DNA of 45,053 nucleotides from Escherichia phage Msk (MW057918); one strand, 5' to 3'. Shown: positions 1,804 through 24,679, counted from the first letter of the stretch. The notes: generated by a model from the sequence alone, not told the origin. Made by a program: numbers and translations.

Positions 1804-1831
1804 TGCGTGGGCTAAAAACTCGTGTATAATG
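1804..1831 (+). promoter_or_regulatory. Sigma70-like promoter upstream of major capsid gene (-35 TTGCGT, 16-bp spacer, -10 TATAAT)
   Basis: ttgcgtgggctaaaaactcgtgtataat; consensus-like hexamers at canonical spacing. Confidence 0.5.
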
Positions 1832-1868
1832 AATACGTAAACACATAACTGAAAAGGAACAATAAAGA

Positions 1869-2813
1869 ATGGCCATTAAATTTGATGCAGAACAAGCAAA
1901 AATCACCGCTCACCTCGAGCAAATGGGCGTAGAAAAAGCTGATGCCGCTGGTATCTGGACCGTTAGCCAGCTCACCGCTGCTCTGAACCGTGCTTACGAA
2001 AAAGAATACGCAGAAAACTCAGTTGTTAATATCTTCCCTGTAACAAATGAAATTCCTGGTCACGCGAAGTATTTCGAATACCCAGAGTTTGATGGTGTTG
2101 GCATTGCTCAGATTATCGCTGACTACTCTGACGATCTGCCGCTGGTTGATGCGTTTATGACCGAGAAACAAGGCAAAGTGTTCCGTTTCGGTAACGCATT
2201 CCTGATTTCTACCGATGAAATTAAAGCGGGTGCTGCAACTGGTCAGTCTCTGTCAACTCGCAAGCAGGCATTGGCTTTCGAAGCGCACGATAACTTGCTG
2301 GATAAACTGGTGTGGTCTGGTTCCACTCCTCACGGTATCGTAAGTGTATTCGATCAACCGAACATCAACAACGTTGTTGCCACTCCAAACTGGAGCGTCG
2401 CGCAGAACGCGATTAATGACGTCACTGCGATGATTGATGCGGTTGAGAGCTCAACCCAGGGCCTACATCATGTAACTGACATTCTGCTTCCAGCTTCCGC
2501 TCGTCGAGTGATGCAGGGACTGGTTCCGCAGACAAACCTGAGTTACGGCGAATTGTTCACTCGTAACAACCCGGGTCTGACCATTCGCTTTATGCAGTTC
2601 CTGGACAACTACGATGGCGCAGGTGGCAAGGCTGCTCTGGCGTTTGAAAAGAATCCACTCAATATGTCTATTGAGATTCCAGAAGCTACTAACGTACTTC
2701 CTGGGCAGCCCAAGGACTTGCACTTTAAGTACCCTGTAACATCAAAGGCGACGGGTTTGATCGTTTATCGTCCACTGACGATGGCTGTAATGAAAGGTAT
2801 CACCTTCGCGTAA
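1869..2813 (+). CDS. Major capsid protein
   Basis: 314-aa ORF after scaffold/decoration genes, own promoter and strong terminators on both sides; size and position typical of HK97-fold MCP; not verified by homology search. Confidence 0.55.
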   Translation: MAIKFDAEQAKITAHLEQMGVEKADAAGIWTVSQLTAALNRAYEKEYAENSVVNIFPVTNEIPGHAKYFEYPEFDGVGIAQIIADYSDDLPLVDAFMTEKQGKVFRFGNAFLISTDEIKAGAATGQSLSTRKQALAFEAHDNLLDKLVWSGSTPHGIVSVFDQPNINNVVATPNWSVAQNAINDVTAMIDAVESSTQGLHHVTDILLPASARRVMQGLVPQTNLSYGELFTRNNPGLTIRFMQFLDNYDGAGGKAALAFEKNPLNMSIEIPEATNVLPGQPKDLHFKYPVTSKATGLIVYRPLTMAVMKGITFA

Positions 2814-2817
2814 TAAA

Positions 2818-2842
2818 CCGCCCTCTTCGGAGGGCTTTTTTT
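2818..2842 (+). terminator. Rho-independent terminator
   Basis: gccctcttcggagggcttttttt. Confidence 0.7.
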
Positions 2843-2906
2843 ACGTCTGTACCAAATGGAATTGTTGGGTTATAATCACTCAATCAGATAAACAAAGGAG
2901 ACAAAA

Positions 2907-3152
2907 ATGATTCGTTTAGAACACACTGGCGCTTGCCTTATCGTTTACAAGGGTGAGAAATATTTGCCTGGTGACACTTTCGAGGTTGATGTAATTTGCG
3001 ACGGACTCAAGCGTTTAATCGCAGAGGGTAAACTCACTATTGAAGGTGACGCTAAAGCAACCAAGCAAATCGCGCAAGAAATTGTTAGCAAGAAAAAGCG
3101 CAAAGAACCGAAAACCATCTCCGAAGCTGAGACTGGTAACGAGTACAAATAA
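2907..3152 (+). CDS. Hypothetical small head/neck-associated protein
   Basis: 81-aa ORF with SD AAAGGAG; Lys-rich C-terminus; in structural module. Confidence 0.4.
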   Translation: MIRLEHTGACLIVYKGEKYLPGDTFEVDVICDGLKRLIAEGKLTIEGDAKATKQIAQEIVSKKKRKEPKTISEAETGNEYK

Positions 3153-3193
3153 CAAACAGGGCGCTTCGGCGTCCTTTATTGTATGGAGCTAAT

Positions 3194-3595
3194 ATGAATG
3201 ATGCAATTTTGGCGTTTATGCGCTCTCTTGTTCCTGCGCTTAAAGCGGTGGATGACGAAGCAATTAATGTATGGATTGATTTGGCACGTCTATATGTATG
3301 CGAAAGCAAGTTTGGCGCAGACAAAGATAAGGCCGTAGGACTTTACGCGCTACACCTGATGCTTTCTGATGGCGCATTTAAGGGTGAGAGTGAAAGTCTG
3401 GAAACATACAGTCGAAGAATGGCAAGTTACGCACTGAGCGGTGAATTCTCTATCACCTATGATAACCAATCAGCAATCCAAGGTGATTTATCATCTTCCT
3501 CCTGGGGCCGCATGTACAAAGCACTGCTCCGCAAGAAAGGTGGCGGCTTTGGATTTATTACTTCCGCTGGTGGCGGCGGGTGCGGTTGCCGATGA
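3194..3595 (+). CDS. Hypothetical structural protein (head-tail joining region)
   Basis: ATG at 3194 preceded by GGAG; ORF track start at 3179 is a TTG extension; Gly-rich C-terminus. Confidence 0.4.
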   Translation: MNDAILAFMRSLVPALKAVDDEAINVWIDLARLYVCESKFGADKDKAVGLYALHLMLSDGAFKGESESLETYSRRMASYALSGEFSITYDNQSAIQGDLSSSSWGRMYKALLRKKGGGFGFITSAGGGGCGCR

Positions 3596-3963
3596 ACTAC
3601 AGCGAAATCGAATCAATCACTCGCTCTGGCATTGACTTCTTTAGTGATGCCAATGGCGTTTATGAAATGAGTACTGGTGATGGATATGTTGAAATCGTTA
3701 ACGGCGTTGAAGTTGAAGTTCCTTCGCAAACACTTCAGCTAAAAGGCTTGGTGCGAGAAATCAAGACGCGAGATATCGATGGCGAGTTTATCCAGTTTGG
3801 CGATAAGCGCGGAATCTTCACGGCACAGGTAGAAATCAAGCAGGGTTATCAGATTAAAGTTGATGGCGAGACTTTTGTTGTTGTTGATCCTCGCCCAGTT
3901 AAACCAACTGGTACAGTTGTTGGTTATAGACCAATTCTTCGTAGGGTGACTACTTATGGCTAG
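3592..3963 (+). CDS. Hypothetical structural protein (head-tail connector/closure candidate)
   Basis: ATGA start/stop overlap with upstream gene; position between capsid and tail genes. Confidence 0.4.
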   Translation: MNYSEIESITRSGIDFFSDANGVYEMSTGDGYVEIVNGVEVEVPSQTLQLKGLVREIKTRDIDGEFIQFGDKRGIFTAQVEIKQGYQIKVDGETFVVVDPRPVKPTGTVVGYRPILRRVTTYG

Positions 3964-4405
3964 TTTTATACCGAAGGCTAATGGCGGGGTTATTGAATTT
4001 AGCCGTTCCATTTCTGAATGGATAGATAAGGTTGAATCTGGAGTTGATGAGGTTGTTGCAGGAACCATTATCAAGACAGCCAAGGGTCTGGTAGATCAGT
4101 CACCGGTTGACACTGGTAGATTTAAAGCCAACTGGCAAATAACAGCAAACTCCCCGGCTCAGCAGTCAGTAATTGACTATGATAAACTTGGAACAGAGAC
4201 CAAAAGAGCACTCGCAAGACAGGCAAGGGCGGTAGCCAGAGCAAAGGGAACAAAGGTCATTTACATAACAAACAGGCTTGATTACTCAATTCACCTTGAG
4301 TATGGCGGCTCGGGTCAAGCACCAAACGGCATTATTAGGATTGTTCAGATGCGGCTTGGTCGATACTTCCAGGAAGCAGTAGAGGAGGCTAAACGTGCAC
4401 TATGA
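3956..4405 (+). CDS. Hypothetical structural protein (tail completion/neck candidate)
   Basis: 149-aa ORF, translationally coupled to neighbours. Confidence 0.4.
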   Translation: MASFIPKANGGVIEFSRSISEWIDKVESGVDEVVAGTIIKTAKGLVDQSPVDTGRFKANWQITANSPAQQSVIDYDKLGTETKRALARQARAVARAKGTKVIYITNRLDYSIHLEYGGSGQAPNGIIRIVQMRLGRYFQEAVEEAKRAL

Positions 4406-4796
4406 ATTGTCTATAGCTGCCAGGAAATATGTTAATGATTTGCTGGTGAGTAGCTTCCCAGTCAGATATCCAGTATCTTGGGAAAACGTTGCTTTCACTC
4501 CTCCAGCAGATGGCTCTATCTGGCTAAAGTATGACTACATCGAGGTTGACACCGTAACATACGGGCTGAGCAGGAAGTGCAAATACTATGTAGGGATGGT
4601 GCAGGTTTCTGTCTTCTTCAGTCCAGGCACTGGCATTGATAAGCCTAGACAAATCGCTAATCGATTGGCAGAATCTATCGTTGATGGTACAATGCTTGAC
4701 AGCGGGACCATTTATGAGTCTGGAGTTGTTAACCCGGTTATCAAATCCAAGTCTGGGTGGTTTATCCCGGTTCATTTTTATGTTCGTCTAGACTAA
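4395..4796 (+). CDS. Hypothetical structural protein (tail terminator candidate)
   Basis: GTG start after GGAGG; overlaps upstream stop; 133 aa. Confidence 0.4.
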   Translation: MHYELSIAARKYVNDLLVSSFPVRYPVSWENVAFTPPADGSIWLKYDYIEVDTVTYGLSRKCKYYVGMVQVSVFFSPGTGIDKPRQIANRLAESIVDGTMLDSGTIYESGVVNPVIKSKSGWFIPVHFYVRLD

Positions 4797-4811
4797 CAAA
4801 AGGAAAAATAC

Positions 4812-5468
4812 ATGGCTCATCTCAGCAATGGCACGCAGGTCTTCGTAGAAGGCTCTCGCGGTGACACAATTGATGTAACTGCAATTTCTAACGCAGCTAC
4901 CCCTGTTTTAACTGTATCTGACGCCTCTGGCTTGGTTGTTGGTGATTACCTGCTTTTCACCTCATCGGCCTCTACACTTCTGGCTGACAAGCAAGTACGA
5001 ATTACTGCAATTTCTGGCACTTCGGTAACAGTTGAAGGTATTGATACCTCCAACACCACTAAGTTCCCTGCTGGCTTAACTGGTGAAGTTGTTAAGATTA
5101 CTTCATGGTTCGAAGTCCCGTGTGTTCAGGACGTATCTACTGACGGCGGCGAACAGCAGTTTGTTAACTTCCAGTGCCTTTCTGATGACCGCGAACAGCA
5201 GATTCCGACTTATAAATCTGCGGTAACAAACACCTTCACCTTTGCTCACGAGTACACCAACCAGGTCTATCCGGTTCTGCGTAACTACGATGAGTCTGGC
5301 CAGGTTGTCGCGATTCGTCTGTTCGTACCTCGCGCTCAGGAAATGCGTTTGCAGTCCGGCACTATCACTTTCAACGACACCCCTACCATTGGTGTTAACG
5401 AGATCGAAACGGTATCCATCGCAGTATCAATTCGTGGTCGCCTGTCCTCTGTAGCAGCTGAAGTTTAA
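4812..5468 (+). CDS. Major tail protein
   Basis: 218-aa ORF immediately upstream of chaperone/tape-measure block, followed by strong terminator; Thr/Ser/Val-rich. Confidence 0.5.
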   Translation: MAHLSNGTQVFVEGSRGDTIDVTAISNAATPVLTVSDASGLVVGDYLLFTSSASTLLADKQVRITAISGTSVTVEGIDTSNTTKFPAGLTGEVVKITSWFEVPCVQDVSTDGGEQQFVNFQCLSDDREQQIPTYKSAVTNTFTFAHEYTNQVYPVLRNYDESGQVVAIRLFVPRAQEMRLQSGTITFNDTPTIGVNEIETVSIAVSIRGRLSSVAAEV

Positions 5469-5474
5469 AACACA

Positions 5475-5498
5475 AACCCTCTTCGGAGGGTTTTTTAT
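5475..5498 (+). terminator. Rho-independent terminator
   Basis: ccctcttcggagggtttttt. Confidence 0.7.
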
Positions 5499-5501
5499 TG
5501 C

Positions 5502-5544
5502 ATAGCACTTTTGCTAAAGCACTTATTCAGCTTTACTGTATAGT
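5502..5544 (+). promoter_or_regulatory. Motif-class promoter (variant ATAGCACTTTTGCTAAAG, 22 bp, TATAGT) driving 5578-5826
   Basis: Motif variant with 4-nt core spacer followed after exactly 22 bp by tatagt and conserved leader catctaaacgaaa. Confidence 0.4.
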
Positions 5545-5577
5545 TATCTCATCTAAACGAAATGAGAGATTAAAGAA

Positions 5578-5826
5578 ATGAATAACGTTAAAAACATCAT
5601 CAAACTTGCTGCAGTTCTTGTTGCTTTTTATGCAGTAGTTCAGATTGTTAACCCAACTGGCGAGGCTGATGCCAATAGCAAGGCAAACAAATATACCGTT
5701 GAGTTCGCTAAAGCTGAGCGAGCATGCCAGGAGCTTGTGGGTAGTAAAGTTGACCAAATCATGAAATATGGCAAAGAGGTCTGCAAGGACTCAGCTGCTA
5801 AGATTGCAAAAGAAAACACTAAGTAA
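5578..5826 (+). CDS. Small secreted/membrane protein with N-terminal hydrophobic segment
   Basis: 82 aa; hydrophobic N-terminus KLAAVLVAFYAVVQIV; own motif-class promoter inside tail cluster. Confidence 0.4.
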   Translation: MNNVKNIIKLAAVLVAFYAVVQIVNPTGEADANSKANKYTVEFAKAERACQELVGSKVDQIMKYGKEVCKDSAAKIAKENTK

Positions 5827-5865
5827 TAGAATACATACTCACAAACAATAAGAGGATTAACTAAG

Positions 5866-6180
5866 ATGGCTAAGTTCAAACTTTCACTGGCAGCACTCCC
5901 TGACTTCAAGCTTCCGGTAAAATTCAAGCTGGCTAACGACCAGGATGTAGAGGTTATCTTTACAGTCAAGCATAAGAAAACATCTGAGCTTCAGGAGCTT
6001 TTGCAGAAAGAAGACTTGAGTACTAAAGAATTGATTATGGCAATCGCCTCTGATTGGGATTTGGAAGAAGAATACAACGAGGATAACGTTAATGAGTTCT
6101 CCGACCTGTTCCCAGCGTCAACAGTTGCACTGACTACCGCTTACATGCAGGCACTGGCAGGCCAGCGGGTAAAAAACTAA
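5866..6180 (+). CDS. Tail assembly chaperone (lambda gpG-like)
   Basis: 104-aa acidic protein directly upstream of tape measure gene; ends at slippery AAAAAAC. Confidence 0.6.
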   Translation: MAKFKLSLAALPDFKLPVKFKLANDQDVEVIFTVKHKKTSELQELLQKEDLSTKELIMAIASDWDLEEEYNEDNVNEFSDLFPASTVALTTAYMQALAGQRVKN

Positions 6181-6500
6181 AGAGGGCGGTGTATCTACAG
6201 TACCAGTCAGATCCAACAGATGCCGAACTGGAAGCTATTGGGATGCGCCGCTCTGATTACGAAGACGAAGAGCCTGAAGTTTTGCACTTCGACGATAACA
6301 TGATGAAGGCGTGGGACATTTATTGTTCAATGGCGACACAGTGGAGAGTCGGAGCCAACGGACCAACGGGCCTAGATTACAACGTGCTAAATTTCCTCTT
6401 TAGAGTGTATAATGTTTCTGAAGAGGAATTGGTACTCAGCGATTTACGCATCCTTGAAGCTAAGGCTCTCGAGATGATGGATAACCTGATAAAAAAATAA
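6171..6500 (+). CDS. Tail assembly chaperone frameshift extension (gpGT-like, -1 frame)
   Basis: A AAA AAC heptamer at 6171-6177 immediately before stop; -1 frame open to 6500. Confidence 0.5.
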   Translation, partial: KKLKRAVYLQYQSDPTDAELEAIGMRRSDYEDEEPEVLHFDDNMMKAWDIYCSMATQWRVGANGPTGLDYNVLNFLFRVYNVSEEELVLSDLRILEAKALEMMDNLIKK

Positions 6501-6523
6501 CCCGCTTCGGCGGGTTTTCTATT
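6500..6523 (+). terminator. Hairpin/attenuator before tape measure gene
   Basis: cccgcttcggcgggttttctatt. Confidence 0.4.
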
Positions 6524-6535
6524 ATGGAGGCTTAG

Positions 6536-9514
6536 ATGGCAACAAATGAATTAGCTGGAATCACACTAGCCGTAGACGTCTCGCAGGTAGACAGAGGTAC
6601 GCAGTCCCTGCAGAAGTTCAGGCAGGCAAACCAGCAAGCCGCTTCCGGCATTAGTGAGTTCGTCAATGCTGAGCAGGTTGCTAAAAACCAGGCTAGAGAT
6701 ACCGCTCGCGCACTTGCTGAGCAACAAGCATCTTTAGCTAAATTGCAAACGGCTATTGACCCAACTGCGGCAAAGTTCCGTAAGCTGCAAGAGGCAGCGG
6801 TGGGTCTTGATAAGGCGTTTGCTGCTGGCGTAGTTCCTGATGAGGAGTTTTTCCGCTTAGGTGAGGCACTTGAAACGCAGAACGCAAAACTTGCTCGATC
6901 ACGTGCAGCGCTAACTGAAGAGGGTAGGGCAGCAGCTCAAGCCGCAAAGGATAAGGCAAAGGCAAAGGCTGAAGCTGATAGGTTCATTGCGTCACTTGAG
7001 CGTCAGGCTCAGGCGGCAACATTGACGCGTGAGGAGTACTTAAAATTACAGGCTGCTCAGCTTGGCGTAAGTTCTCAGGCAGCGCCTATTATTGACAGAA
7101 TCGCCGATGCATCACAGAAGGCAAACACCCAGCTAATTGCTCAGAGCAAGGCATTTCAACGCTCTGGATTAAGCGCGGGTCAATACAAGGCTGCAATCTC
7201 TCAATTGCCAGCGCAGATTACAGACATTGGGACATCACTTGCTGGCGGCATTCCGATTTGGCTTATTGCAATTCAGCAAGGCGGGCAAATTAAGGATGCA
7301 TTTGGAGGTATTGGTAACACCTTTAGATTCGCGCTAGCAGCCTTAAATCCATTCAATGTTGCTGTTGGGGTTTTGGGTGGCGCGCTTGTTGCTCTAGGTA
7401 TCGGTGCTGCCCAGGCAGAGAGTGAATTCAGAGCATTAAATTCTGCCATTGCGTTCTCAAACAACTCCACAATCGCATCAATCTCGCAGGTTAGAGATTT
7501 GGTTAGCTCTGTTTCTGATGCTACTGATGCAACCAGAGGACTTGTGACTAGCATCGCAACAAGCCTTATTGAGCAAGGGAACCTTACGCTGACGCAGATT
7601 GACAAGATTACTAAATCTACCGCCAGATGGGCGCAGTTGACAGGTAAGGATGCAAAGGAAATTACTGGTTACTATAACCAGATTGCGAGCGACCCAATTC
7701 AAGGACTTGCTGATTTAGACAAGAGGTTTAACTTCCTTACACAGGGGCAGTTAACAACAATTGAAAGATTGAGAGAGACTAGGGGTGAGGTTGAAGCCGT
7801 AACTGCTGCTATTGATATATTTAGCAAATCACAGGAGGCAAACCTTAACGATATTGCAGCCCAGCTTACTCCTCTTGAATTGGCCTGGAATGACTTCAGG
7901 AAGTACATATCTGATGTATGGGATGCAATTAGTCGCAGAACGGTTGGGGCGCTAAACCTGTTTGTTGACGTAATCGCCGGAACAATTGAGCAAATTAGGG
8001 TCTTCATCAACCAGGGTGATGTGCTGATTGGTGAATTCGTAATTAGCGCAACACAGGCACTGCAGAACATCCCCGGCCTTGATGGTGTTGGTGATGATGT
8101 TATCAAGGGGCAGCAGAAGATTATCGATGCAGCTAAGAAGCAAAACATTGAGCTAGAGAAGTCTATCAAGGAGCGCGATGCCAGAATCAGAGAAGGAGAA
8201 CTTGGTTACGTTACTCGCAGAGAAAATCAGAATACCAATGAGCAGTCAGGCACTGATGAGGAGTTTGCAAAAAGGAAGAAAGCACTTCAGGATGAACTTG
8301 ATGCGATCAAGAAGAACAGGAAAGAAGAAAATGGTAGGGTTAAAGAGCAAAGAGACCTTACAATTGGTTACGAATCTGGCGTACTTGCACTACAGGCACA
8401 ACTCAAGGTGCTTCAGGAAAACAGGGATATTGGCGCAGTAATAAGCAATGAGCGCAAGCAGTATCTTCAGGAGGAGGCTAAATTCAGGATTCTTGAGCAG
8501 AGGCAACTTGATGGCTCAATTACCAAAGAGCAAGCAAGGCTTCTAATTGAAAAGGATAAAGTTCTTGCACTCGCAAGGCAGAAAGCTGAGTTAGGCGATC
8601 AGATTGTTTTGCAGGAGCGCGCCAATAAGTTAGCTGAAGATAACCGCAAGAAGATTCTTCAGATTAACAACGAAGCAAGCAATATTAATTTGGGGGCTGG
8701 TTTGTCATCTCGCGAGCAGCAGAGGGCAAGAGAGATTCAGGCTCTCCAGTCCAATCAGGTTAATGCTGGTGGCTCTCTTGATGATTTTGATTTTCAGCAA
8801 TTACTGGAAGCAAGAAAGGAATACTACAAGCAGGAGGATAATCTTAGGTCTGATTGGCAAGCTGGCGTAACATCAACGCTTGCAGACTTGGCTGAGAAAT
8901 ATACAGACTACAATCAGATAGCTAAGGATTTAACTGTTGCGGCATTCGATGGAATTACAGACCAGATTACAAACCTTGTAACCACTGGTGAGACCAACTT
9001 CAGGGAGTTCACCGCAAACATCCTCAAAATGATTGCGAAGATTGCAACTCAGTTACTTTTGGTTAAGGCCATCGAATCAACATTGACTAGTTTTGGTGGT
9101 GGAGGAGGTAACGCGTTTGGCTCAATTGCTTCCGGGTTAGGTTTCGCTGGTGGCGGCTACACTGGTGATGGTGGAAAATATCAGCCAGCAGGAACGGTAC
9201 ACCGAGGTGAGTTTGTATTCACAAAAGAAGCGACAAGCAGAATTGGTGTGAAAAACCTTTACGCACTAATGAAAGGTTACGCGAATGGCGGTGTTGTTGG
9301 TGGCCCTTCTGGTTATGCGAATGGTGGATTGGTTTCTGGAGGCGCAGATGTTAATGTTAGCGGGATTACTGTTAGCGTTAATAGTGGGATTGGAAGCAAC
9401 CCAGAGCAGGCCAAGGCGCTGCAAAATGGCGTTAAGGCAATCGTAGCTGAAGAGATTGCTCAGTCATTCCAGCAGGGGGGCAGAGCTTATCAGTACCTTC
9501 GCGGATTCAACTAA
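6536..9514 (+). CDS. Tail tape measure protein
   Basis: 992-aa ORF, long coiled-coil-type low-complexity regions, Gly-rich C-terminal segment, canonical position after G/GT. Confidence 0.8.
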   Translation: MATNELAGITLAVDVSQVDRGTQSLQKFRQANQQAASGISEFVNAEQVAKNQARDTARALAEQQASLAKLQTAIDPTAAKFRKLQEAAVGLDKAFAAGVVPDEEFFRLGEALETQNAKLARSRAALTEEGRAAAQAAKDKAKAKAEADRFIASLERQAQAATLTREEYLKLQAAQLGVSSQAAPIIDRIADASQKANTQLIAQSKAFQRSGLSAGQYKAAISQLPAQITDIGTSLAGGIPIWLIAIQQGGQIKDAFGGIGNTFRFALAALNPFNVAVGVLGGALVALGIGAAQAESEFRALNSAIAFSNNSTIASISQVRDLVSSVSDATDATRGLVTSIATSLIEQGNLTLTQIDKITKSTARWAQLTGKDAKEITGYYNQIASDPIQGLADLDKRFNFLTQGQLTTIERLRETRGEVEAVTAAIDIFSKSQEANLNDIAAQLTPLELAWNDFRKYISDVWDAISRRTVGALNLFVDVIAGTIEQIRVFINQGDVLIGEFVISATQALQNIPGLDGVGDDVIKGQQKIIDAAKKQNIELEKSIKERDARIREGELGYVTRRENQNTNEQSGTDEEFAKRKKALQDELDAIKKNRKEENGRVKEQRDLTIGYESGVLALQAQLKVLQENRDIGAVISNERKQYLQEEAKFRILEQRQLDGSITKEQARLLIEKDKVLALARQKAELGDQIVLQERANKLAEDNRKKILQINNEASNINLGAGLSSREQQRAREIQALQSNQVNAGGSLDDFDFQQLLEARKEYYKQEDNLRSDWQAGVTSTLADLAEKYTDYNQIAKDLTVAAFDGITDQITNLVTTGETNFREFTANILKMIAKIATQLLLVKAIESTLTSFGGGGGNAFGSIASGLGFAGGGYTGDGGKYQPAGTVHRGEFVFTKEATSRIGVKNLYALMKGYANGGVVGGPSGYANGGLVSGGADVNVSGITVSVNSGIGSNPEQAKALQNGVKAIVAEEIAQSFQQGGRAYQYLRGFN

Positions 9515-9544
9515 TTAATGGGGCTTCGGCCCCTAAGGATTTTT

Positions 9545-9895
9545 ATGGCTATTGATACTTTTAACTGGTGCACGCAGATTCAGGGCGGGTCCGCATCTTT
9601 CAGTAACACAAACAACGTCCGCATTGTTAGCTTCGGTAATGGTTATGAGGCTAGAGGCACTGGCGGTTATCGCAGCAATAAGCGCAGCTACCAGATGACC
9701 TACACTAACAAGGACTGGAGAGATGTGATGGATTTCTGCCTCAACCACATCATTACCCCGTTCTTCTGGACTACGCCGCAGGGCGACACATCCATGTTCG
9801 TTATTCAGCAGGATAGTATTAGCGTTACACCAGTCAGTAAGGAAGTTCAGACTGTAAGCATGCAATTCGTAGAAGTATTTAGTTCAATGCGTTAA
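9545..9895 (+). CDS. Minor tail protein (lambda gpM-like)
   Basis: ATG at 9545 with AAGGA SD; about 117 aa, first gene after tape measure as in lambda M-L-K-I-J order. Confidence 0.5.
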   Translation: MAIDTFNWCTQIQGGSASFSNTNNVRIVSFGNGYEARGTGGYRSNKRSYQMTYTNKDWRDVMDFCLNHIITPFFWTTPQGDTSMFVIQQDSISVTPVSKEVQTVSMQFVEVFSSMR

Positions 9896-9898
9896 ACT

Positions 9899-9922
9899 AA
9901 GCCCCTATGCGGGGCTTTTTTA
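9899..9922 (+). terminator. Rho-independent terminator/attenuator
   Basis: agcccctatgcggggctttttt. Confidence 0.5.
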
Positions 9923-9934
9923 TTGGAGAAATAT

Positions 9935-10690
9935 ATGCTAAGTTCAAAGTTTGAAAATCAGTTGCAAAGCCTTTTCCCTGGCGAGATTGTGACGCTAATC
10001 CAGGTTGACGGAACCTCCTTCGGAAGTCTCGTTTACAACTTCCACAATGAGAACATTTCATACACGCCAGAAGAGATTATGATGGCTCAAATGAATGGCG
10101 AGCCACTACCAGAGAAGACTATTACATTTCGTGGTGAAGAGTATGGCCCCAGACCTTTTGGTATCTCGGGCATCAATATGACCTCTGACGGCAAGGCCAA
10201 CAAAGTTACGCTAACAGTATCAAACGTAGACCAGCGAATTAGCGCATTGATTCGAACATACAACGGACTTGTTAAAGCTAAGGTTACCATCTGGATTACT
10301 ACGCGAGACAACATCAACGAAGATGGAAGCATTGCTGATGGGGACTATCGCAGATTTGTTTACTTCATTGAGCGACCGAAGCAGGTTGATTACAAAACCG
10401 CATCATTTGAGCTAAGTAGCCCAATGGATATGGATGGCATTTACATCCCAGCGAGACCTGTTCAGTCTGTTTGCTATTTCGCCTCTAGGGGCTGGTATCG
10501 AAGTGGTAATGGTTGCACCTATGCTGGTAATAGATATTTCGACAAGGATGATAATCCAGTGGCGGACCCTTCATTAGACTTCTGTGCGGGGACTGTCAAT
10601 AGCTGCAAAATCAGGTTTGGTGAGAATAATCAGTTAGATTTCGGCGGTTGCGCTGCCGCAAGCCTTCAGGCTAAAGCCAACCAGAGTTAA
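9935..10690 (+). CDS. Minor tail protein (lambda gpL-like)
   Basis: ATG at 9935 after GGAGAAA; C-terminal Cys cluster as in gpL Fe-S region; position. Confidence 0.55.
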   Translation: MLSSKFENQLQSLFPGEIVTLIQVDGTSFGSLVYNFHNENISYTPEEIMMAQMNGEPLPEKTITFRGEEYGPRPFGISGINMTSDGKANKVTLTVSNVDQRISALIRTYNGLVKAKVTIWITTRDNINEDGSIADGDYRRFVYFIERPKQVDYKTASFELSSPMDMDGIYIPARPVQSVCYFASRGWYRSGNGCTYAGNRYFDKDDNPVADPSLDFCAGTVNSCKIRFGENNQLDFGGCAAASLQAKANQS

Positions 10691-10700
10691 GGGGGAGCAA

Positions 10701-11459
10701 ATGTTAACACCAAAAGTTAAGCTGCAAATATTCCAGCATGCAAAAGAAGTTTACCCGCACGAATGTTGCGGGGTTGTAACGCAGAAGGGCCGAGTCCAGA
10801 AATACCACAGAATCACCAATGCCAGTAAAGACCCAGAAAATGAGTTTATCCTTGATTCAAATGATTATTCTGATATCGCATTTGGCTTAGCTGACAATGA
10901 GTCAATTGTTTACGTAGTTCACTCCCACACGGGTGATGGAGTCACAACAAGACCTAGCCCAGCGGATATTTGCAGCTGCAACGAGTGTGAGATTCCTTAT
11001 GTTATCGTCAGCATTCCGGAGGGAGATATGCGCATCCTTGAGCCATCATCTATGCCACTGATTGGTCGCCCGTGGGGGCTTGGTAGCTTTGATTGCTGGG
11101 GGCTTGTGATGGAATTCCACAAGAAATACGGAGTAAAACTGAATGACTACCGCGTCAATTACCCGTGGTGGGAGAAACGGTACAATGAAAATATCTATGA
11201 CGACAACTGGATTAAGGAAGGATTTGAGCTGGTAAAAACTTCAGATATTCCTATTGGCTCGATGATTATGATGCAGGTGCAAAGCGAGGTGACAAACCAC
11301 GCAGGAATCTACATTGGCAATAACAGATTCATTCATCACCTTTATGGCAAAATGAGCTCCGTTGATATCTACTCCGATTACTGGCGAGAGCGCACAGTGC
11401 GAATCGTTCGCCATAAGGATTTACCAGAGGATGTAATTTATGACCCAGAAACTGATTGA
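10701..11459 (+). CDS. Tail tip assembly protein (lambda gpK-like; JAMM/MPN plus NlpC/P60-type domains)
   Basis: HSHTGDG...S..D JAMM-like motif and Cys/His-containing peptidase-like region; position. Confidence 0.6.
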   Translation: MLTPKVKLQIFQHAKEVYPHECCGVVTQKGRVQKYHRITNASKDPENEFILDSNDYSDIAFGLADNESIVYVVHSHTGDGVTTRPSPADICSCNECEIPYVIVSIPEGDMRILEPSSMPLIGRPWGLGSFDCWGLVMEFHKKYGVKLNDYRVNYPWWEKRYNENIYDDNWIKEGFELVKTSDIPIGSMIMMQVQSEVTNHAGIYIGNNRFIHHLYGKMSSVDIYSDYWRERTVRIVRHKDLPEDVIYDPETD

Positions 11460-12012
11460 TATTAAGTTAGGCTTGTCTCTAGGCCGCAAGTTTGGAAAGA
11501 TTCACCAGATGGCAGTGAATAGCGTGCCAGAGGCTATGCGAGCGCTTTGCTCTCAGATTCCTGCATTCAAGGAGTTCATGAGCAGCCACGTTGGGCAGAA
11601 CACAAGATACGCAGTCTTTGTAGATGGTAAAAATGTGAACGAGCATCGAATCTCTGATTTTAGTGCCGTTCAGGAGATACGCATCTTGCCAATCCCGCAA
11701 GGCAGAAAGTCCGGCGGTTTGTTTCAGACAATTTTAGGTGCAGCGCTTATCACGGTTGGCATCTTCACTGGGCAGATTTATCTTGTTGGTGCTGGCGTAT
11801 CTTTGGCAGCAGGTGGTATTGCCCAGCTACTCTCACCGCAGGCAACTGGATTAAAGACCCAGAACAACCAAACAAGCAACAGAGCATCTTACGCATTTGG
11901 CTCCGCTGTAAACACGGTGGCTGCTGGTTATCCTGTTTGCCTTCCTTACGGCTATCGGACGGTTGGAGGATCTGTGTTTAGTGCCGGCAGCTACGCTGAA
12001 GATAATGCTTAA
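11440..12012 (+). CDS. Tail assembly protein (lambda gpI-like)
   Basis: 190 aa, overlaps K-like gene, hydrophobic Gly/Ala-rich C-terminal half; position. Confidence 0.5.
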   Translation: MTQKLIDIKLGLSLGRKFGKIHQMAVNSVPEAMRALCSQIPAFKEFMSSHVGQNTRYAVFVDGKNVNEHRISDFSAVQEIRILPIPQGRKSGGLFQTILGAALITVGIFTGQIYLVGAGVSLAAGGIAQLLSPQATGLKTQNNQTSNRASYAFGSAVNTVAAGYPVCLPYGYRTVGGSVFSAGSYAEDNA

Positions 12013-12019
12013 ATATCAT

Positions 12020-12043
12020 ACCCGCCTAGTGCGGGTTTTTTAT
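12020..12043 (+). terminator. Hairpin with U-run between I-like and J-like genes
   Basis: cccgcctagtgcgggtttttt. Confidence 0.45.
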
Positions 12044-12053
12044 TTAGTGTAGA

Positions 12054-15000
12054 ATGGCACAAATGATCAAAACAAACATGAGGCTTTGTGATATGGCTGA
12101 AGATATTAAGATTTATGGTGCTAAAGGCGGCAGCCAGAAGCAGCATCAACCAGTGGAGCAGGAAGACAACCTGATTTCATTAAACAAGGTCAAGGTATTA
12201 CTTGCGGTTGCTGACGGCGAGGTTGACCCTAACTTCTCAATGAAAGATTTATACCTTGCTGACGTTCCGGTGCAAAACCAGGATGGTAGCTACAATTATG
12301 AGGGTGTTCGCGCTGAGTTCCGTGCTGGCACGCAGTATCAGGACTATATCGCCGGGCTTGACGGTGCTAACTCAGAGATTCAGGCATCCAGAGAAATCAA
12401 GAACGATACCCCGTACATCATTGCGGTTAACAATACTCAGCTTTCAGCAATTCGAGTTAAGCTATTCTGGCCTCGACTGGTCAAGCAAGAGAGCAACGGT
12501 GACCTGAACGGAACTACATGTGAGTATGCAATTGATCTTTCTGTTAATGGTGGCGCTTATCAGGAATATACTCGCGGAGTTGCTAACGGCAAGACCACTA
12601 CAGGTTACGACCGCAGCATTCGCGTGAACCTTCCGGCTGAATTTGATAGCGCACTGGTTCGCATCCGTAAGATCACACCAGACTCAACAAGTAGCACCCT
12701 GGTTAACGGAATGCAGATAACAACCTATCAGGAGGTAATCGACGCTAAATTCCGCTATCCGCTTACAGCCCTGGTTTATGTTGAGTTCGGCTCTGACCTT
12801 TTCCCTAACGGGATTCCAACAATCTCAATCAAGAAGAGATGGAAGCTGATTCAGGTCCCAACTAACTACGACCCTGAAACCAGAACTTACAGCGGGACAT
12901 GGAATGGCCTATTCAAAATGGCATGGTCAAACAACCCAGCGTGGGTTCTGTATGACTTAGTGACAAACCGCCGCTACGGTCTTGATCAGCGAGAGTTGGG
13001 TGTAGAGATTGATAAGTGGGGCCTGTATGAAGCCGCGCAATTCTGTGACCAGATGGTTCCTGATGGTAAGGGTGGAATGGAGCCGCGCTACCTGTGCGAC
13101 ATGGTTGTACAGAATAAAGTTGAGGCTTACACGCTAATTCGTGACATCTGCTCAATCTTCCGTGGCCTGACTTTCTATGACGGCGAAAAGATTGGTATTG
13201 TGGTTGATAAGCCACGCAACCCATCATACATCTTCACGAATGATAACGTTGTTAATGGATTGTTCAGCCGCACATTTGCCAGTGATAAGAGCCTTTACAC
13301 CACTGCAAACGTTCAGTTTGATGATGTTGAGAACAACTATCAGCAAGATGTTGAGCCTGTTTTTGAGCTCGAGGCCACTCGCCGATTCGGCTTCAATCCA
13401 GTCGACCTTACGGCAATCGGCTGCACTCGAAGAAGTGAAGCAAACAGACGCGGCAGATGGCTCCTAAAAACCAATCTGAGAAGCGAAACTATCAGCTTCA
13501 CCACTGGGTTGGAGGGCATGATTCCGATGATTGGCGAGGTGATTGCGGTCAATGATGCTGCATGGTCTAGCAACTATCAGCTAAACCTTTCCGGTCGTAT
13601 TGAATCAGTTCAGGGGTTGCAGGTTTTTACCCCGTTTAAAGTTGACGCAGCGCCAGGTGACAGAATTCTTCTGAACAAACCCGACGGAAGCCCTGAAGCA
13701 AGAACTATTGCCAGCATTTCGGAAGACGGTAGAACCATCAACCTGAACACGGCGTTCAGCTTTGTAGCTCAGCCTGATACTGTGTTCGCAATTGATAAGG
13801 ATAATCTGGCACTTCAGCAATATGTTGTGACCGGTATTCAAAAAGCAGATACTGATGGTAAGGACTCATTCCAGTATACGATTACTGCGGTAGAGTACGA
13901 CCCTAACAAGTATGACGAGATCGACTACGGCGTTAACATTGCTGACCGCCCGACTTCAATTGTAGAGCCTGACAGATTATCGCCACCAGAAAACCTGACG
14001 GTATCAAGCTACAGTAAGGTTGTTCAGGGTTTATCAGTTGAGACGATGGTTATCGGATGGGATAAGGCTCCATACGCAAAAACCTACAATGTTCAGTGGA
14101 GGAAAGAGAATGGCAACTGGATTAACGTACCAAGAACAGCTAGTACAGAGGTTGATATCGAAGGTATTTACGCAGGAATCTATGACGTTAGGGTTCGCAG
14201 CGTATCAGATACTGAAAACGTGTCTGCCTGGTCTGATATTGTAACGGTATCGCTAACTGGCAAGATTGGTCGCCCATCTGCGCCTACGGTTATCACGGCG
14301 TCAACTGATGAGGTATTTGGCATCCGTGTTAAATGGGGATTCCCTGATGGCTCTGGTGATACTGCTTACACTGAGCTTCAGCAGGTTCCTGATAATGGCG
14401 ATGGTACTTACAATCCTGATAACGCAAGCTTGCTGACGTTGCTGCCTTATCCAGCCTATGAATACTGGCATACTCCTATTCAGCCAGGTAAGGTTATCTG
14501 GTATCGCGCAAGATTGATTGACAGAATAGGTAATACGTCTGATTGGTCTAGTTTCGCAAGAGGCATGAGTACTGACGACGAAAACATTATCAATGATTAC
14601 ATCAAAGTTGATATTGAAGGCTCAGAAGGATTCAAATACCTCGAGCAGAATGCGATTCAAAAGAATCAGGACATTCAGAACCAGGCAGAATCAATTCTTG
14701 AGAACGCATTAGCTAATGACACTGATGTTCGTCGCATGACTAAGGAGAACGGCAAACGTAAGGCTGAATATGTTCAGGCTGTTAATCTCATAGCCGATGA
14801 GACTCAGGCGCGTGTAGAGGCTCTCGCAGCTCTTAAAGCGCAGATAGATGATGAAGTTGTAGCATCGATTACAGAAGTTCAGACAGCGCTAGCCACCGAG
14901 ACAGAAGCAAGGACTACTGCAGACACGGCTCTATCAGCAAGATTGGGTGATAACGAGGCGGCACTAAACCAGAAACTGGATGCTTTCTCTAATGCCACAT

Positions 15001-15479
15001 CCACTGGTGTGCAGTACGGAATTAGTCTTGGCCTTAAATACAATGGACAGACTTATTCATCCGGCATGAGTATGGAGCTTGTTGGCACTGGTGGTAATGT
15101 TCGCAGTCAGTTCATCTTTGACGCAAACAGATTCGCAATCAGTAATGGTATTGGTTCTGGCTCCGGTCAATGGCAGCTCCCCTTCGTTGTCGAGAACGGA
15201 AACGTAATGATCCAAAGCGCAGTAATCGGAGATGGCTCAATTACTAACGCGAAGATTGGTAACAGGATTCAATCTAACAGCTACGTTCCTGGCTCTCAAG
15301 GATGGGCGATTGACAAGTCAGGAAGTGCGGAATTTAGTAACGCCACTGTAATGGGTAACCTGTATGCCAATAATGGTAACTTCGCATTTAACGGAACCAA
15401 TAACACGGTTCAGATTAACAATAACGGAATCACTGTAAACTTACCGAACGGAGGAAGAGTGGTAGTTGGAGTGTGGTAA
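12054..15479 (+). CDS. Central tail fiber / host specificity protein (lambda gpJ-like)
   Basis: 1141-aa ORF at end of tail cluster; size and position match gpJ. Confidence 0.75.
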   Translation: MAQMIKTNMRLCDMAEDIKIYGAKGGSQKQHQPVEQEDNLISLNKVKVLLAVADGEVDPNFSMKDLYLADVPVQNQDGSYNYEGVRAEFRAGTQYQDYIAGLDGANSEIQASREIKNDTPYIIAVNNTQLSAIRVKLFWPRLVKQESNGDLNGTTCEYAIDLSVNGGAYQEYTRGVANGKTTTGYDRSIRVNLPAEFDSALVRIRKITPDSTSSTLVNGMQITTYQEVIDAKFRYPLTALVYVEFGSDLFPNGIPTISIKKRWKLIQVPTNYDPETRTYSGTWNGLFKMAWSNNPAWVLYDLVTNRRYGLDQRELGVEIDKWGLYEAAQFCDQMVPDGKGGMEPRYLCDMVVQNKVEAYTLIRDICSIFRGLTFYDGEKIGIVVDKPRNPSYIFTNDNVVNGLFSRTFASDKSLYTTANVQFDDVENNYQQDVEPVFELEATRRFGFNPVDLTAIGCTRRSEANRRGRWLLKTNLRSETISFTTGLEGMIPMIGEVIAVNDAAWSSNYQLNLSGRIESVQGLQVFTPFKVDAAPGDRILLNKPDGSPEARTIASISEDGRTINLNTAFSFVAQPDTVFAIDKDNLALQQYVVTGIQKADTDGKDSFQYTITAVEYDPNKYDEIDYGVNIADRPTSIVEPDRLSPPENLTVSSYSKVVQGLSVETMVIGWDKAPYAKTYNVQWRKENGNWINVPRTASTEVDIEGIYAGIYDVRVRSVSDTENVSAWSDIVTVSLTGKIGRPSAPTVITASTDEVFGIRVKWGFPDGSGDTAYTELQQVPDNGDGTYNPDNASLLTLLPYPAYEYWHTPIQPGKVIWYRARLIDRIGNTSDWSSFARGMSTDDENIINDYIKVDIEGSEGFKYLEQNAIQKNQDIQNQAESILENALANDTDVRRMTKENGKRKAEYVQAVNLIADETQARVEALAALKAQIDDEVVASITEVQTALATETEARTTADTALSARLGDNEAALNQKLDAFSNATSTGVQYGISLGLKYNGQTYSSGMSMELVGTGGNVRSQFIFDANRFAISNGIGSGSGQWQLPFVVENGNVMIQSAVIGDGSITNAKIGNRIQSNSYVPGSQGWAIDKSGSAEFSNATVMGNLYANNGNFAFNGTNNTVQINNNGITVNLPNGGRVVVGVW

Positions 15480-15483
15480 TAAA

Positions 15484-15512
15484 TAAAGCCCCTTAATTGG
15501 GGCTTTTCTTTT
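15484..15512. terminator. Bidirectional rho-independent terminator between convergent genes
   Basis: aagccccttaattggggctttt with A-run upstream and T-run downstream. Confidence 0.6.
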
Positions 15513-16482
15513 AGTAGAAGTTTGGAATGAATGGAAGTTCCATTGATATGTTCGTGTCGAAAGGAAACCGAGCGCCTGATTGCGTCGAGTAGTTACCAAT
15601 TACAGAGCCAGGAACAGCCCTAACAGAGCCTCCAGACATGCAGACCCCCTTGTACCTTAAGTTGTTATAACCTCCAGTAACTCTAGTCGTAGCGCCGCAT
15701 CTAAGCAGCGGGAAGAATCCACCATTTATTGACTGGTATCCATTATTGATCTGAATGAATCCACCAAGAACAAATGGGCGGCGAACACTTGAAAAAACAA
15801 TCTGACCAGAACTATTCGACATTGTTAGTCCTGGTCCGGCTGGTGGGGGTTCATTTCTGAATATCACCAACTGAACATAAGTACTTGCCGCAATATCATC
15901 TGTACCTCCGTAGGTTATATCCCTACACCATATTGTTGATCCATCTGATTCAAGTGATACGTTTGGATTATCCCACTTGCCGAATGGTATGCCGCTAACT
16001 GGTAGCGATGCCGCCCTGTTAACCTGTATTCCTCCAACCCATGCTGCTGACATTAGTCTAGAGTTGCTTGATATAGCAAGGAAATCAGTTGAGTTTTCAA
16101 CGAGTATCCCTGGGCTTGATGAAGATGATGCTGGTAGAATTTCAAAGCAATTCCCAGCAAAGTCAATTATTCGACCTTTAGCACCATTGAAGTTGCTGAG
16201 CGTTATCCTACCAGTGCCGTCATTTACCTTTTGAAACCCGTTCATGTAATAAACTTCGGGTATAACATCATAAGCGTCAACGTGGACTGCCTTCGTTGGT
16301 ATGCAGAAAGCCGTAGAACCGGGGGACATTGTCAATCCAAAATCCCACGAACTTGCTGGGGTTGAAAGTCCATTGGTATTTATTGATCCAGTCACAGCAG
16401 GCGCCCTTAATCCTGCCGTTATTTCCATCGCTGGTCTTCCGTCATTGAGGTCAATCAATATACCCTGCGGCATTATTTCCAC
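15511..16482 (-). CDS. Putative receptor-binding / tail fibre-like protein (Gly/Ser/Thr/Asn-rich)
   Basis: 323-aa beta-rich composition; convergent with J-like gene; cotranscribed with and overlapping the lipoprotein gene by 10 nt. Confidence 0.35.
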
Positions 16483-16718
16483 TCCTTACTGCCATGATCT
16501 GCAACAGATCCGCCGTAACCTCCGCCAGCTTTGCTTTCAATGCCAGCGTATCGAATATCAACCTCACCAGCCGGAACAACCAAACCGCCTTTCCACTTAG
16601 CTACGCACACGCCGTTTGCTTGCGTTGCACACCAACCATCAGGACGGGGACCTGATGAACAACCAACTGCCATGATTACTGCTGCTGCGATGATTGCTGA
16701 TTTGATGAAGTTATTCAT
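16473..16718 (-). CDS. Lipoprotein, putative superinfection-exclusion (Cor/Llp-like)
   Basis: ATG at 16718 with AAGGAA SD; signal peptide ending in lipobox AVGC followed by Cys-containing mature part; ORF-track 5' extension rejected. Confidence 0.5.
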
Positions 16719-16756
16719 TTTGTATTCCTTAGTAATTTCGTTTCGATGGAGTAATA

Positions 16757-16800
16757 GTATCGCATCCTTGCGATCAGTGTTTAGCAATTCGTGCTATTTA
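16757..16800 (-). promoter_or_regulatory. Motif-class promoter (TAAATAGCACGAATTGCTAA, 22 bp, TACTAT) for lipoprotein operon
   Basis: Perfect motif on minus strand at 16781-16800, hexamer 22 bp downstream, conserved leader ccatcgaaacga. Confidence 0.5.
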
Positions 16801-17473
16801 TTCTTTCTTTCGCAATTTTAAAGTAATCCGAATCAAGCTCTATACCTATAAAGCTCCTTCTTGTATTGACGCATGCCACGCCAGTGGTTCCGCTACCCAT
16901 GCAGTTATCAAGAACTGTATCCCCTTCGTTTGTATATGTATTAATCAGGTATTCCATTAACGCTACGGGCTTTTGGGTAGGGTGTGCGCCTGTTTCTGTT
17001 GCGAATTCAAGAATTGTGGTTGGGTATCCAGTAACTGTTTGTCTTGTTGTCTTACTGCACTCATTGTAATTTCCGCGATTGGTTCTTGAAACCATCACAT
17101 CCGTTTGCCTTGTCCCTTGCGGGTTGTATGTTGGCTGATTTGCATAAAACACCGCTATATCTTCAGTGTTTATAAGTGGTTGCTTTTTCGCATTTAGATG
17201 TCCAGTAGGTTTTGATTTTTTCCAAATCCAGCAATATTTAAATTCCTTTAGATTGCTTGTTATCAGCGCGGACGTGAAAGGCTGTGCGCAAGTAAGAACA
17301 ACCGCCCCACGGCTTATGCGGCGGTATTGACGCCAAAGTAACCGCAAATCGATGATGACATCCCATCTGTTTCTCGTTGTTCCATACGGCAAATCACATA
17401 AAATAAGGTCTATACTCTTGTCTGGGATATCATTCATCATCTCTAAGCAGTCGCCATTCATTAATTTAATCAT
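16781..17473 (-). CDS. DNA methyltransferase, beta-class N6-adenine/N4-cytosine type (DPPY motif before FxGxG motif)
   Basis: [10 protein letters not shown] (motif IV) near N-terminus, NCMGSGTTG (motif I) near C-terminus, PTQKP segment; no adjacent restriction gene. Confidence 0.8.
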
Positions 17474-17511
17474 TTTCTATCTCTCTCTTCGTGTTTTTGA
17501 TGTGGTAATAA

Positions 17512-17553
17512 TACAGCCGCCGCTGCGGAATGTCTTTAGCTATTCGTGCTATT
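17512..17553 (-). promoter_or_regulatory. Motif-class promoter (variant AATAGCACGAATAGCTAA) for methyltransferase gene
   Basis: Variant motif at 17536-17553 on minus strand, tattat about 23 bp downstream. Confidence 0.4.
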
Positions 17554-17610
17554 GTATACGCGTAATCGATGTAACTCGATGTATACAATTTCATCCGCGG
17601 AAAATGGTAT

Positions 17611-17706
17611 ACGCGCTGTTACGCCAATTTACGCATTAGTTACATTGAAATATCTATATATATCAACCTTTTACTCTTATTATTATTATTATACATATTA
17701 CTGTGT
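17611..17706. repeat. AT-rich intergenic block with (TTA)n microsatellite; homologous to 36971-37073
   Basis: tatctatatatatcaacc...ttattattattatta shared with second locus; several GTATAC palindromes nearby. Confidence 0.6.
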
Positions 17707-19178: not shown

Positions 19179-19222
19179 ATAGCACTAATTGCTAAAAACA
19201 AAATTGAAAGATTGGGTATGAT
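19177..19222 (+). promoter_or_regulatory. Motif-class promoter (AAATAGCACTAATTGCTAAA, 22 bp, TATGAT)
   Basis: Motif overlaps exonuclease stop codon; hexamer at 19217-19222; leader taccacatcaacaacgaacgagg. Confidence 0.45.
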
Positions 19223-24062: not shown

Positions 24063-24102
24063 ACAATGTATAGCGCCACTGTTTATCAATTCGTGCTATT
24101 TC
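24063..24102 (-). promoter_or_regulatory. Motif-class promoter (variant AAATAGCACGAATTGATAAA, 22 bp, TATAGT) for primase
   Basis: Motif at 24086-24102 minus strand, hexamer 22 bp downstream. Confidence 0.4.
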
Positions 24103-24578: not shown

Positions 24579-24679
24579 CTTATTACCTCAATAGCATTTT
24601 TTGTTAAAAGTAATTCTGATTTGATGTTAGTATTGTACTTAATTGAACGCTACAAGACAATTTTTATAGGAGTTTAGAT

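Follow-up and report, generated by a model that had tools for sequence, protein, structure and literature searches.

The region downstream of the J-like tail-tip gene is best explained as a whole, and with high confidence, as the cassette that determines the receptor specificity of a T1-like phage dependent on LptD; in it the gene of a small lipoprotein is followed by that of a receptor-binding protein. The window, that is, the whole stretch of 45,053 nucleotides that was analysed, matched Escherichia phage vB_ecoS_OzMSK (PQ659294.1, 45,053 bp) at 100% over bases 15300-17600, and window coordinates equal PQ659294.1 coordinates minus 8283. This T1-like siphophage was described as a contaminant of protein-production laboratories (PMC13035648). 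The gene pair itself is already known: its receptor has been published, both protein families have been solved with the LPS translocon LptDE and the layout has been described for the BASEL phages. The pair adds little new, and the promoter box found upstream of it is the more interesting remainder. The parts of the region are listed in Table 1.

Table 1. Features of the region in window coordinates
Feature	Position	Strand	Basis or remark
J-like tail-tip gene	12054..15479	+	convergent with the operon
Bidirectional intrinsic terminator, shared with J	15485..15506	both	also annotated in SU57 and AHS24
Receptor-binding protein gene OzMSK_038, 320 aa	15511..16473	-	PF20051/DUF6453; PDB 9rpt_C; GenBank
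Shine-Dalgarno AAGGAG of the receptor-binding gene	16482..16487	-	junction conserved in five phages
Lipoprotein gene OzMSK_039, 81 aa	16473..16718	-	PF24052; PDB 9rps_D
Shine-Dalgarno AAGGA of the lipoprotein gene	16726..16730	-	GenBank RBS at window 16726-16729
Candidate -10 hexamer TACTAT	16754..16759	-	18 bp past the box
Promoter box ATAGCACGAATTGCTAAACa, 20 bp	16778..16797	-	candidate promoter; same box before the lipoprotein gene in SU57, Rtp, IMM-001 and AHS24
DNA methylase gene	16781..17473	-	upstream of the lipoprotein gene, same strand
Second promoter box, before the methylase gene	17533..17552	-	-10 TATTAT at 17508-17513

The two proteins and their solved relatives

The lipoprotein that the earlier note had placed at 16473-16718, with a lipobox AVGC and a cysteine-containing mature part, was found again both in the open reading frame (ATG 16718 to TAA 16475-16473) and in the GenBank CDS OzMSK_039. 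Its signal peptide covers residues 1-19 and is followed by the lipid-anchor Cys20 (codon 16659-16661) with a serine at position +2, and two more cysteines stand at 30 and 38. Lipoproteins with a residue other than Asp at +2 are sorted to the outer membrane by the Lol pathway, and the serine of OzMSK_039 agrees with this rule. A TTG start at 16787, which would give a lipoprotein frame of 104 aa, was ruled out by the N termini of the homologues. The protein scored 129.8 bits against Pfam PF24052 (cut-off 27), with residues 1-80 on model positions 1-80, and aligned end to end with chain D of PDB 9rps, the lipoprotein Rtp45 (E 3e-34, ~73% identity). Cys20, Cys30 and Cys38 are all conserved in Rtp45, and the OzMSK lipoprotein differs from it by a 5-residue Gly-rich insertion, SKAGG (residues 62-66), and at ~27% of positions. 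On these matches OzMSK_039 is predicted to be a superinfection-exclusion lipoprotein of the Rtp45 type, a name that could replace its present GenBank label of 'hypothetical protein'. In the near-identical phage MSK the lipoprotein was listed in 2021 as cor/Rtp45-like (PMC8421802), and the paper on OzMSK and LptD is silent on this neighbour of the receptor-binding gene (PMC13035648).

PDB 9RPS contains Shigella LptDE with the phage Rtp lipoprotein Rtp45 and with LptM. In this structure (PMC12685063) Rtp45 is lodged at the periplasmic face, with LptE and LptM on either side, and holds a Cys30-Cys38 disulphide; its hairpin runs up the lumen of the LptD barrel, and extracellular loop 4 is displaced by up to 20 Å. 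The authors argue that this displacement prevents docking of the receptor-binding protein, exclusion being deduced, in the accessible part of their report, from the structure rather than from an in vivo assay, and they state that AlphaFold mispredicts Rtp45.

The second protein, OzMSK_038, scored 459.6 bits against Pfam PF20051 (DUF6453) and matched chain 9rpt_C of phage Oekolampad with 42% identity (E 3.7e-65, residues 2-320 on 2-321). No structure prediction was needed for the fold, since the full-length matches to solved chains settle it. The Oekolampad receptor-binding protein was solved on the open state of LptDE, to which it is bound from outside (9RPT). In GenBank OzMSK_038 is annotated as 'putative LptD-receptor binding protein based on experimental evidence'; two LptD loop mutants resist OzMSK, and the product of gene 038 has been modelled on LptDE (PMC13035648). 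Gly, Ser and Thr, in which the earlier note had called the larger protein rich, make up 29% of its residues. The gene is convergent with J, 31 nt away from it, and has the same placement in the relatives. By homology and by this published work OzMSK_038 can be assigned as the predicted LptD-binding tail-tip protein, and the J-like tail-tip protein is its presumed docking partner.

The probable coupled operon and its relatives

GenBank begins the receptor-binding gene at ATG 16473, and so do the five homologues that were compared, those of SU57, Rtp, Sfin-4 and Oekolampad among them; their N termini read M-[PAG]-[QA]-G-I. Because this ATG is the true start, the protein has 320 residues and the two genes overlap by 1 nt (ATAATG). 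The larger frame of the earlier note, 15511-16482 with 323 aa, thus keeps its end at 15511 and loses its start and its length, and the 10-nt overlap deduced from it falls away. The GTG at 16482 that would give 323 aa was rejected as a start: it falls among the codons for K-E-W, the conserved C-terminal residues of the lipoprotein, and every homologue begins at the ATG. A perfect AAGGAG is found inside the lipoprotein gene, 8 nt before the receptor-binding ATG, and falls within the same K-E-W codons. No internal promoter for the receptor-binding gene was predicted within the lipoprotein gene. From this junction we infer that the lipoprotein and receptor-binding genes probably form one translationally coupled operon.

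The bidirectional terminator that had been proposed to be shared with the J-like gene was recovered, with an 8-bp G+C-rich stem and U-tracts on both strands, in the 31-nt gap between the stop of J (15479) and that of the receptor-binding gene (15511), and its folding z-scores were -4.0 and -2.7. An Rfam scan of 15300-17700 gave no match near any gathering score.

The gene order, the junction (a 1-nt overlap or a 2-nt gap) and the J-convergent shared terminator recur in SU57, Rtp, Sfin-4, Oekolampad, IMM-001 and AHS24. For the BASEL phages, the loci downstream of gpJ are known to carry receptor-binding proteins and their cognate exclusion proteins (Maffei et al. 2021, PMC8594841). The coupled pair is a conserved layout of LptD-targeting small siphophages, and the view that the arrangement is unusual has to be given up. 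The pairs Rtp45/Rtp44 and bas18_0026/bas18_0025 of Oekolampad (9RPS, 9RPT, 9RPW, 9RQI) resemble that of OzMSK in joining PF24052 to PF20051 with the lipoprotein first, in lying convergent with J with a shared terminator, in using LptD as receptor and in having the anchor cysteine together with Cys30-Cys38. Compared with the Rtp pair, the OzMSK lipoprotein carries the Gly-rich insertion, the receptor-binding allele differs, and a methylase gene and its own box promoter lie upstream.

Matches to the lipoprotein in tblastn came from 372 phage records, and those to the receptor-binding protein from 427. The two are not always adjacent: Klebsiella phage phiW14 carries its DUF6453 gene behind J, on the strand of J, and its lipoprotein gene ~10 kb off, in the replication module, and by tblastn coordinates tens of kb separate the two matches in phiEco32-like podophages. 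Protein identities also vary from pair to pair. OzMSK and Rtp share 73% in the lipoprotein and 39% in the receptor-binding protein (Rtp44), OzMSK and Sfin-4 share 39% and 67.5%, and Sfin-4 and Oekolampad share 67% and 41.5%. The two lipoprotein types share ~37%. The DNA identity of OzMSK and Rtp is 80-88% over most of the lipoprotein gene, 45-55% in the body of the receptor-binding gene and 70-97% at the 3' end of J. It follows from these identity mosaics that the two genes reassort among LptD-targeting phages. Such reassortment would be tolerated because the target of the lipoprotein is probably the inner, conserved face of LptD rather than any one receptor-binding allele.

Proposed action of the pair and its alternatives

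Homology and the published work identify the product of gene 038 as the tail-tip protein that recognises the LPS translocon LptDE. The product of gene 039, once exported and lipidated, would bind periplasmic LptD between LptE and LptM, a placement that is transferred from the Rtp45-LptDE structure. Its hairpin would pass up the LptD lumen and displace extracellular loop 4, the receptor-binding proteins of OzMSK and related phages would then be unable to dock, and the infected cell would be spared superinfection while progeny would not be wasted on cell debris. The homology search for which the earlier note had called matched both proteins to chains solved with LptDE (9rps_D and 9rpt_C). Its suggestion of a receptor-masking pair is thus supported through PF24052/9RPS and PF20051/9RPT, the target being LptD and not FhuA (PMC13035648, PMC12685063).

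The homologues that are unlinked from the DUF6453 gene, in the replication module of phiW14 and in the phiEco32-like podophages, would also suit a lipoprotein that serves mainly in host takeover, plugging LptD to stop LPS export, weakening the outer membrane and so aiding lysis or stopping envelope growth, with the adsorption block as a by-product. LptD is essential, and the Rtp45 hairpin fills the LptD lumen and touches both LptE and LptM, but no toxicity is reported for E. coli that grew while overexpressing Rtp45 together with LptDE (PMC12685063). The tight linkage of the lipoprotein gene to its cognate receptor-binding gene in coliphages is what is expected of an exclusion factor, and we regard takeover as the main role of the lipoprotein as unlikely.

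Exclusion of receptor-sharing phages is also the business of Cor and Llp, to which the earlier note had likened the arrangement. The functional parallel and the J-convergent operon stood; membership of that family did not survive the sequence comparisons with T1 Cor and Llp. In BLASTP the signal peptide alone aligned with T1 Cor, and on PF24052 T1 Cor reached 17.7 bits, below the cut-off of 27, whereas the Oekolampad and Sfin-4 lipoproteins reached 76 and 87 bits. Among the PDB matches of the lipoprotein up to an E of 1 there was no Llp chain, though FhuA-Llp has been deposited (8A60). OzMSK moreover infects the fhuA-defective BL21(DE3) and depends on LptD (PMC13035648). A FhuA inactivator of the Cor/Llp family, as in T1, phi80 and T5, is very improbable here, even if the size class, the lipobox and the J-adjacent position match, some GenBank homologues are named 'Cor superinfection exclusion protein' and the MSK paper says cor (PMC8421802). 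The likeness of the lipoprotein to Cor and Llp is functional, not familial.

T5 Llp and pb5 resemble the OzMSK pair in that an outer-membrane lipoprotein on the periplasmic face blocks the phage's own receptor and the two genes adjoin; the target there is FhuA, however, and Llp has no detectable sequence relationship to the OzMSK lipoprotein. Llp works by long-range allostery, whereas Rtp45 displaces loop 4 physically (PMC12685063). Cor of T1, phi80 and N15 is likewise a small lipoprotein encoded next to J on the opposite strand and excludes receptor-sharing phages, but it targets FhuA and its similarity to the OzMSK lipoprotein does not reach beyond the signal peptide. The T1 cor gene has no companion on the minus strand; the two FhuA-locus genes beside J, ST32 and ST31 (annotated as outer-membrane and membrane-associated proteins), follow J on the plus strand.

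A membrane or 'moron' role for the 320-aa protein, expressed alongside the lipoprotein and not part of the virion, as the PHROG and RefSeq labels would have it (phrog_1265, 'membrane protein / moron'; 'membrane protein'), is hardly credible: the protein was absent among the seven gel bands of the virion proteomics of an AHS24-type relative, which a low-copy tip protein could escape, but its N terminus has neither a signal peptide nor a hydrophobic segment, the Oekolampad homologue was solved bound to LptDE from outside, the phiW14 homologue directly follows J on the same strand, and the alleles at the locus track receptor use across phages (PMC8594841; bioRxiv 2026.04.02.716166).

The promoter box and what may read it

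The motif TAAATAGCACGAATTGCTAA occurs in 11 copies at no more than 3 mismatches, against 0.02 expected. At 16781-16800 the motif runs into the 3' end of the DNA methylase gene and covers its last codons and its stop. Most copies then carry, at a fixed distance, a TATnAT hexamer and a leader resembling CATCGAAACGA, and at the operon the hexamer TACTAT lies downstream of the motif. Across 53 sites, TAnnnT was found at box positions 39-44. Transcription of the operon would start near A16747 and continue into the leader CATCGAAACGA, and both genes would form one transcription unit that runs from the box-plus-TACTAT promoter to the bidirectional terminator shared with J. At the operon promoter no site of the sigma-70 type was predicted. 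The TTGCTA within the motif was rejected as a -35 hexamer, lying 22 nt from the -10 hexamer. A sigma-54 promoter was rejected as well: relative to the sigma-54 consensus (TGGCAC-N5-TTGC) the spacing to the GC element falls short by 2 nt, and the sites keep a conserved -10 hexamer of the sigma-70 kind.

No terminator was found between the methylase and lipoprotein genes, and read-through from the methylase promoter could therefore contribute to expression of the pair. Compared with SU57, ACG-M12 and Rtp, OzMSK has gained the methylase gene as an insertion. Where the methylase is missing, as in SU57, Rtp and AHS24, a copy of the box stands directly before the lipoprotein gene; in SU57 and Rtp this box and its upstream flank match the pre-methylase box of OzMSK (17533-17552), and IMM-001 shares with OzMSK the layout of two boxes and a methylase. 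From this comparison of box layouts the methylase is seen to be a cassette inserted between two boxes.

The box is not restricted to this operon. In OzMSK it precedes the methylase, recombination genes, the primase, small pre-terminase genes and the holin/endolysin cassette, and a copy with a 1-nt deletion follows the major tail gene (5502). Rtp has intact boxes at 8425 and 16303, within its structural module. The box is a general promoter type of the phage family, and for that reason the promoter of the operon is not unusual; with boxes also before holin/endolysin and in the structural module of Rtp, the 'non-late-type' promoter of the earlier note could not be upheld.

Two proposals as to what recognises the box appear to us about equally likely, and the verdict on the gene pair is unaffected by either. 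It is possible that the box is the site of the phage helix-turn-helix regulator OzMSK_049, a homologue of Rtp52 and T1 gp23, in which case the operon would be delayed-early or middle and controlled by the phage. The OzMSK box holds a 5+5 inverted repeat, TAGCA-N5-TGCTA, and the regulator gene has a sigma-70-like promoter of its own (TTGTCT-17-TACAAT) without the box. In their 2006 description of the Rtp genome, Wietzorrek and colleagues reportedly proposed ten conserved inverted repeats upstream of Rtp genes as Rtp52 sites. The symmetry of the box, however, extends over only five bases per arm and is broken by the strongly conserved A1, C7, T11, A17 and A18, the orientation of the box and its distance to the -10 hexamer are invariant, and many copies in T1 and phiW14 (ATAGCACTTTTTGTTAAAA) have an imperfect right arm.

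It may equally be that the box is a class II marbox, through which the monomeric AraC-family proteins Rob, MarA and SoxS of the host would recruit RNA polymerase to about a dozen more phage promoters without a -35 hexamer. The box consensus ATAGCACnnWTTGYTAAA fits the E. coli marbox, and the operon box (16779-16797, minus strand) has 0 mismatches to the marbox consensus AYnGCACnnWnnRYYAAAY quoted in PMC3709825. With at most 1 mismatch allowed, 13 marbox-like boxes were counted in OzMSK, 10 of them with a -10 hexamer at 18-19 bp; the counts were 16 and 13 in Rtp, 21 and 15 in T1, 15 and 11 in Klebsiella phage phiW14 and zero and zero in both Oekolampad and lambda, and the random expectation is ~1 and ~0.05. 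Recognition as a marbox would thus extend to the operon and about ten other promoters of OzMSK and to 11-15 promoters each in Rtp, T1 and a Klebsiella Webervirus. The boxes always point forward, with their centre near -40.5 as counted from the predicted start, and the -35 hexamer is absent, which is the published class II layout (PMC10268841, PMC12052159). When ATAGCAC alone was used as the anchor, W10 and G-Y-T-A-A-A at positions 13-18 were still recovered. No homologue of MarA or SoxS was found to be encoded by OzMSK, Rtp or T1 in a search with approximate probe sequences.

Against recognition by the host proteins stands that the case was made in silico only, that the same box can be explained by the phage regulator, and that T1-like phages grow fast in unstressed laboratory strains. 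Such strains contain little MarA or SoxS, and most of their Rob is inactive. We found no literature that links marboxes to phage promoters.

Tentatively, then, the Drexlerviridae could run much of their transcription through Rob, MarA and SoxS of the host (RamA in Klebsiella), that of the gene for plugging the LPS translocon included. If this were true, phage gene expression would respond to the stress signals of bile, oxidants and antibiotics, and the mar, sox and rob status of the host would affect its susceptibility to T1-like laboratory contaminants and to therapeutic phages. It would also explain promoters that lack a -35 hexamer in very fast phages without an RNA polymerase of their own, and the published idea of Rtp52 sites would need to be revised or merged with the marbox. 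The class II promoters of micF, lpxC and lpxL, which MarA, SoxS and Rob activate, resemble the phage promoters in their asymmetric 20-bp box, which points forward and is centred near -41, in their canonical -10 hexamer and in the lack of a -35 hexamer; the phage boxes differ from chromosomal marboxes in being far more uniform and in carrying the short inverted repeat.

Allele exchange at the receptor-binding and lipoprotein locus

Nucleotide identity to Rtp was set side by side for the receptor-binding gene (15500-16450) and its companion lipoprotein gene (16570-16750); the comparison sequences for the locus were L004, L005 (Sfin-4) and L006. The body of the receptor-binding gene is a divergent island of only 45-55% identity to Rtp, whereas the lipoprotein gene is conserved (80-88%); the island is flanked by that gene and by the conserved 3' end of the tail-tip gene J. 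In the LptD phages, receptor-binding alleles and lipoprotein alleles reassort. The sequence upstream of T1 cor (L011 29851-30010) is nearly identical to that upstream of the Sfin-4 lipoprotein gene (L005 2138-2267); T1 Cor is of the FhuA type and the Sfin-4 lipoprotein of the LptD type. In Tunavirus, the exclusion gene appears to have been exchanged behind a promoter region that stayed fixed.

The two genes also occur apart. The Klebsiella Webervirus phiW14 carries a DUF6453 homologue of the receptor-binding gene after J, on the same strand, and an Rtp45-like lipoprotein gene some 10 kb away, directly downstream of its own box promoter (25668). Both genes are present and unlinked in phiEco32-like podophages.

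OzMSK_039 (16473-16718), named "hypothetical protein" in GenBank, is clearly an Rtp45-family lipoprotein. Compared with Rtp45 (KGSSGS), it has five extra Gly-rich residues, SKAGG. The DUF6453 protein is labelled "membrane protein" in several relatives.

The promoter box and its leader

The conserved 20-bp box is followed 18-19 bp downstream by a TATnAT hexamer, and a -35 hexamer is absent. The genomes of OzMSK, Rtp, T1, and phiW14 are enriched for it 10- to 20-fold, and no box was found in those of Oekolampad and lambda. In most box promoters, the inferred start is followed by an initial transcribed sequence that is conserved, (c)CATCGAAACGA; this leader is also found in Rtp and T1. The box matches the marbox consensus (MarA/SoxS/Rob) in the forward orientation; a second reading makes it a site for the HTH regulator of the phage.

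Coordinates of promoter, terminator and lipoprotein features
Feature	Position	Strand
Box	16778-16797	-
Box	17533-17552	-
Box	19179-19198	+
Box	24080-24099	-
Box	27087	+
Box	27297	+
Box	30866	+
Box	35853-35872	-
Box	36693-36712	-
Box	38624	+
Box	39670	+
Degenerate box	5502	+
Degenerate box	23039	+
Degenerate box	24590	+
Initial transcribed sequence	16740-16750, and equivalent positions behind each box	
SKAGG insertion, lipoprotein residues 62-66	16521-16535	
HTH regulator/helicase divergent region	24579-24679	
Terminator just upstream of small terminase gene	40998-41015	
phiW14 lipoprotein gene	L013 25365-25592	-
phiW14 DUF6453 homologue	L013 35577-36533	-

Methylase cassette, divergent region and terminators

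The DNA methylase gene (16781-17555 region) is an inserted cassette with a promoter box on either side. It is present in IMM-001 and missing from SU57, ACG-M12, Rtp, and AHS24, and the downstream box sequence encodes its final six codons and stop.

Between the divergent HTH regulator and helicase genes, the regulator side has a sigma-70-like promoter (TTGTCT-17-TACAAT) and the helicase side a degenerate box, ATAGCATTTTTTGTTAAAA, whose -10 hexamer lies 20 bp from it.

Many strong intrinsic terminators dot the structural module (1-15600 and 40998-41015); 26 were called against 14 expected. Given these, late transcription may depend on read-through or antitermination.
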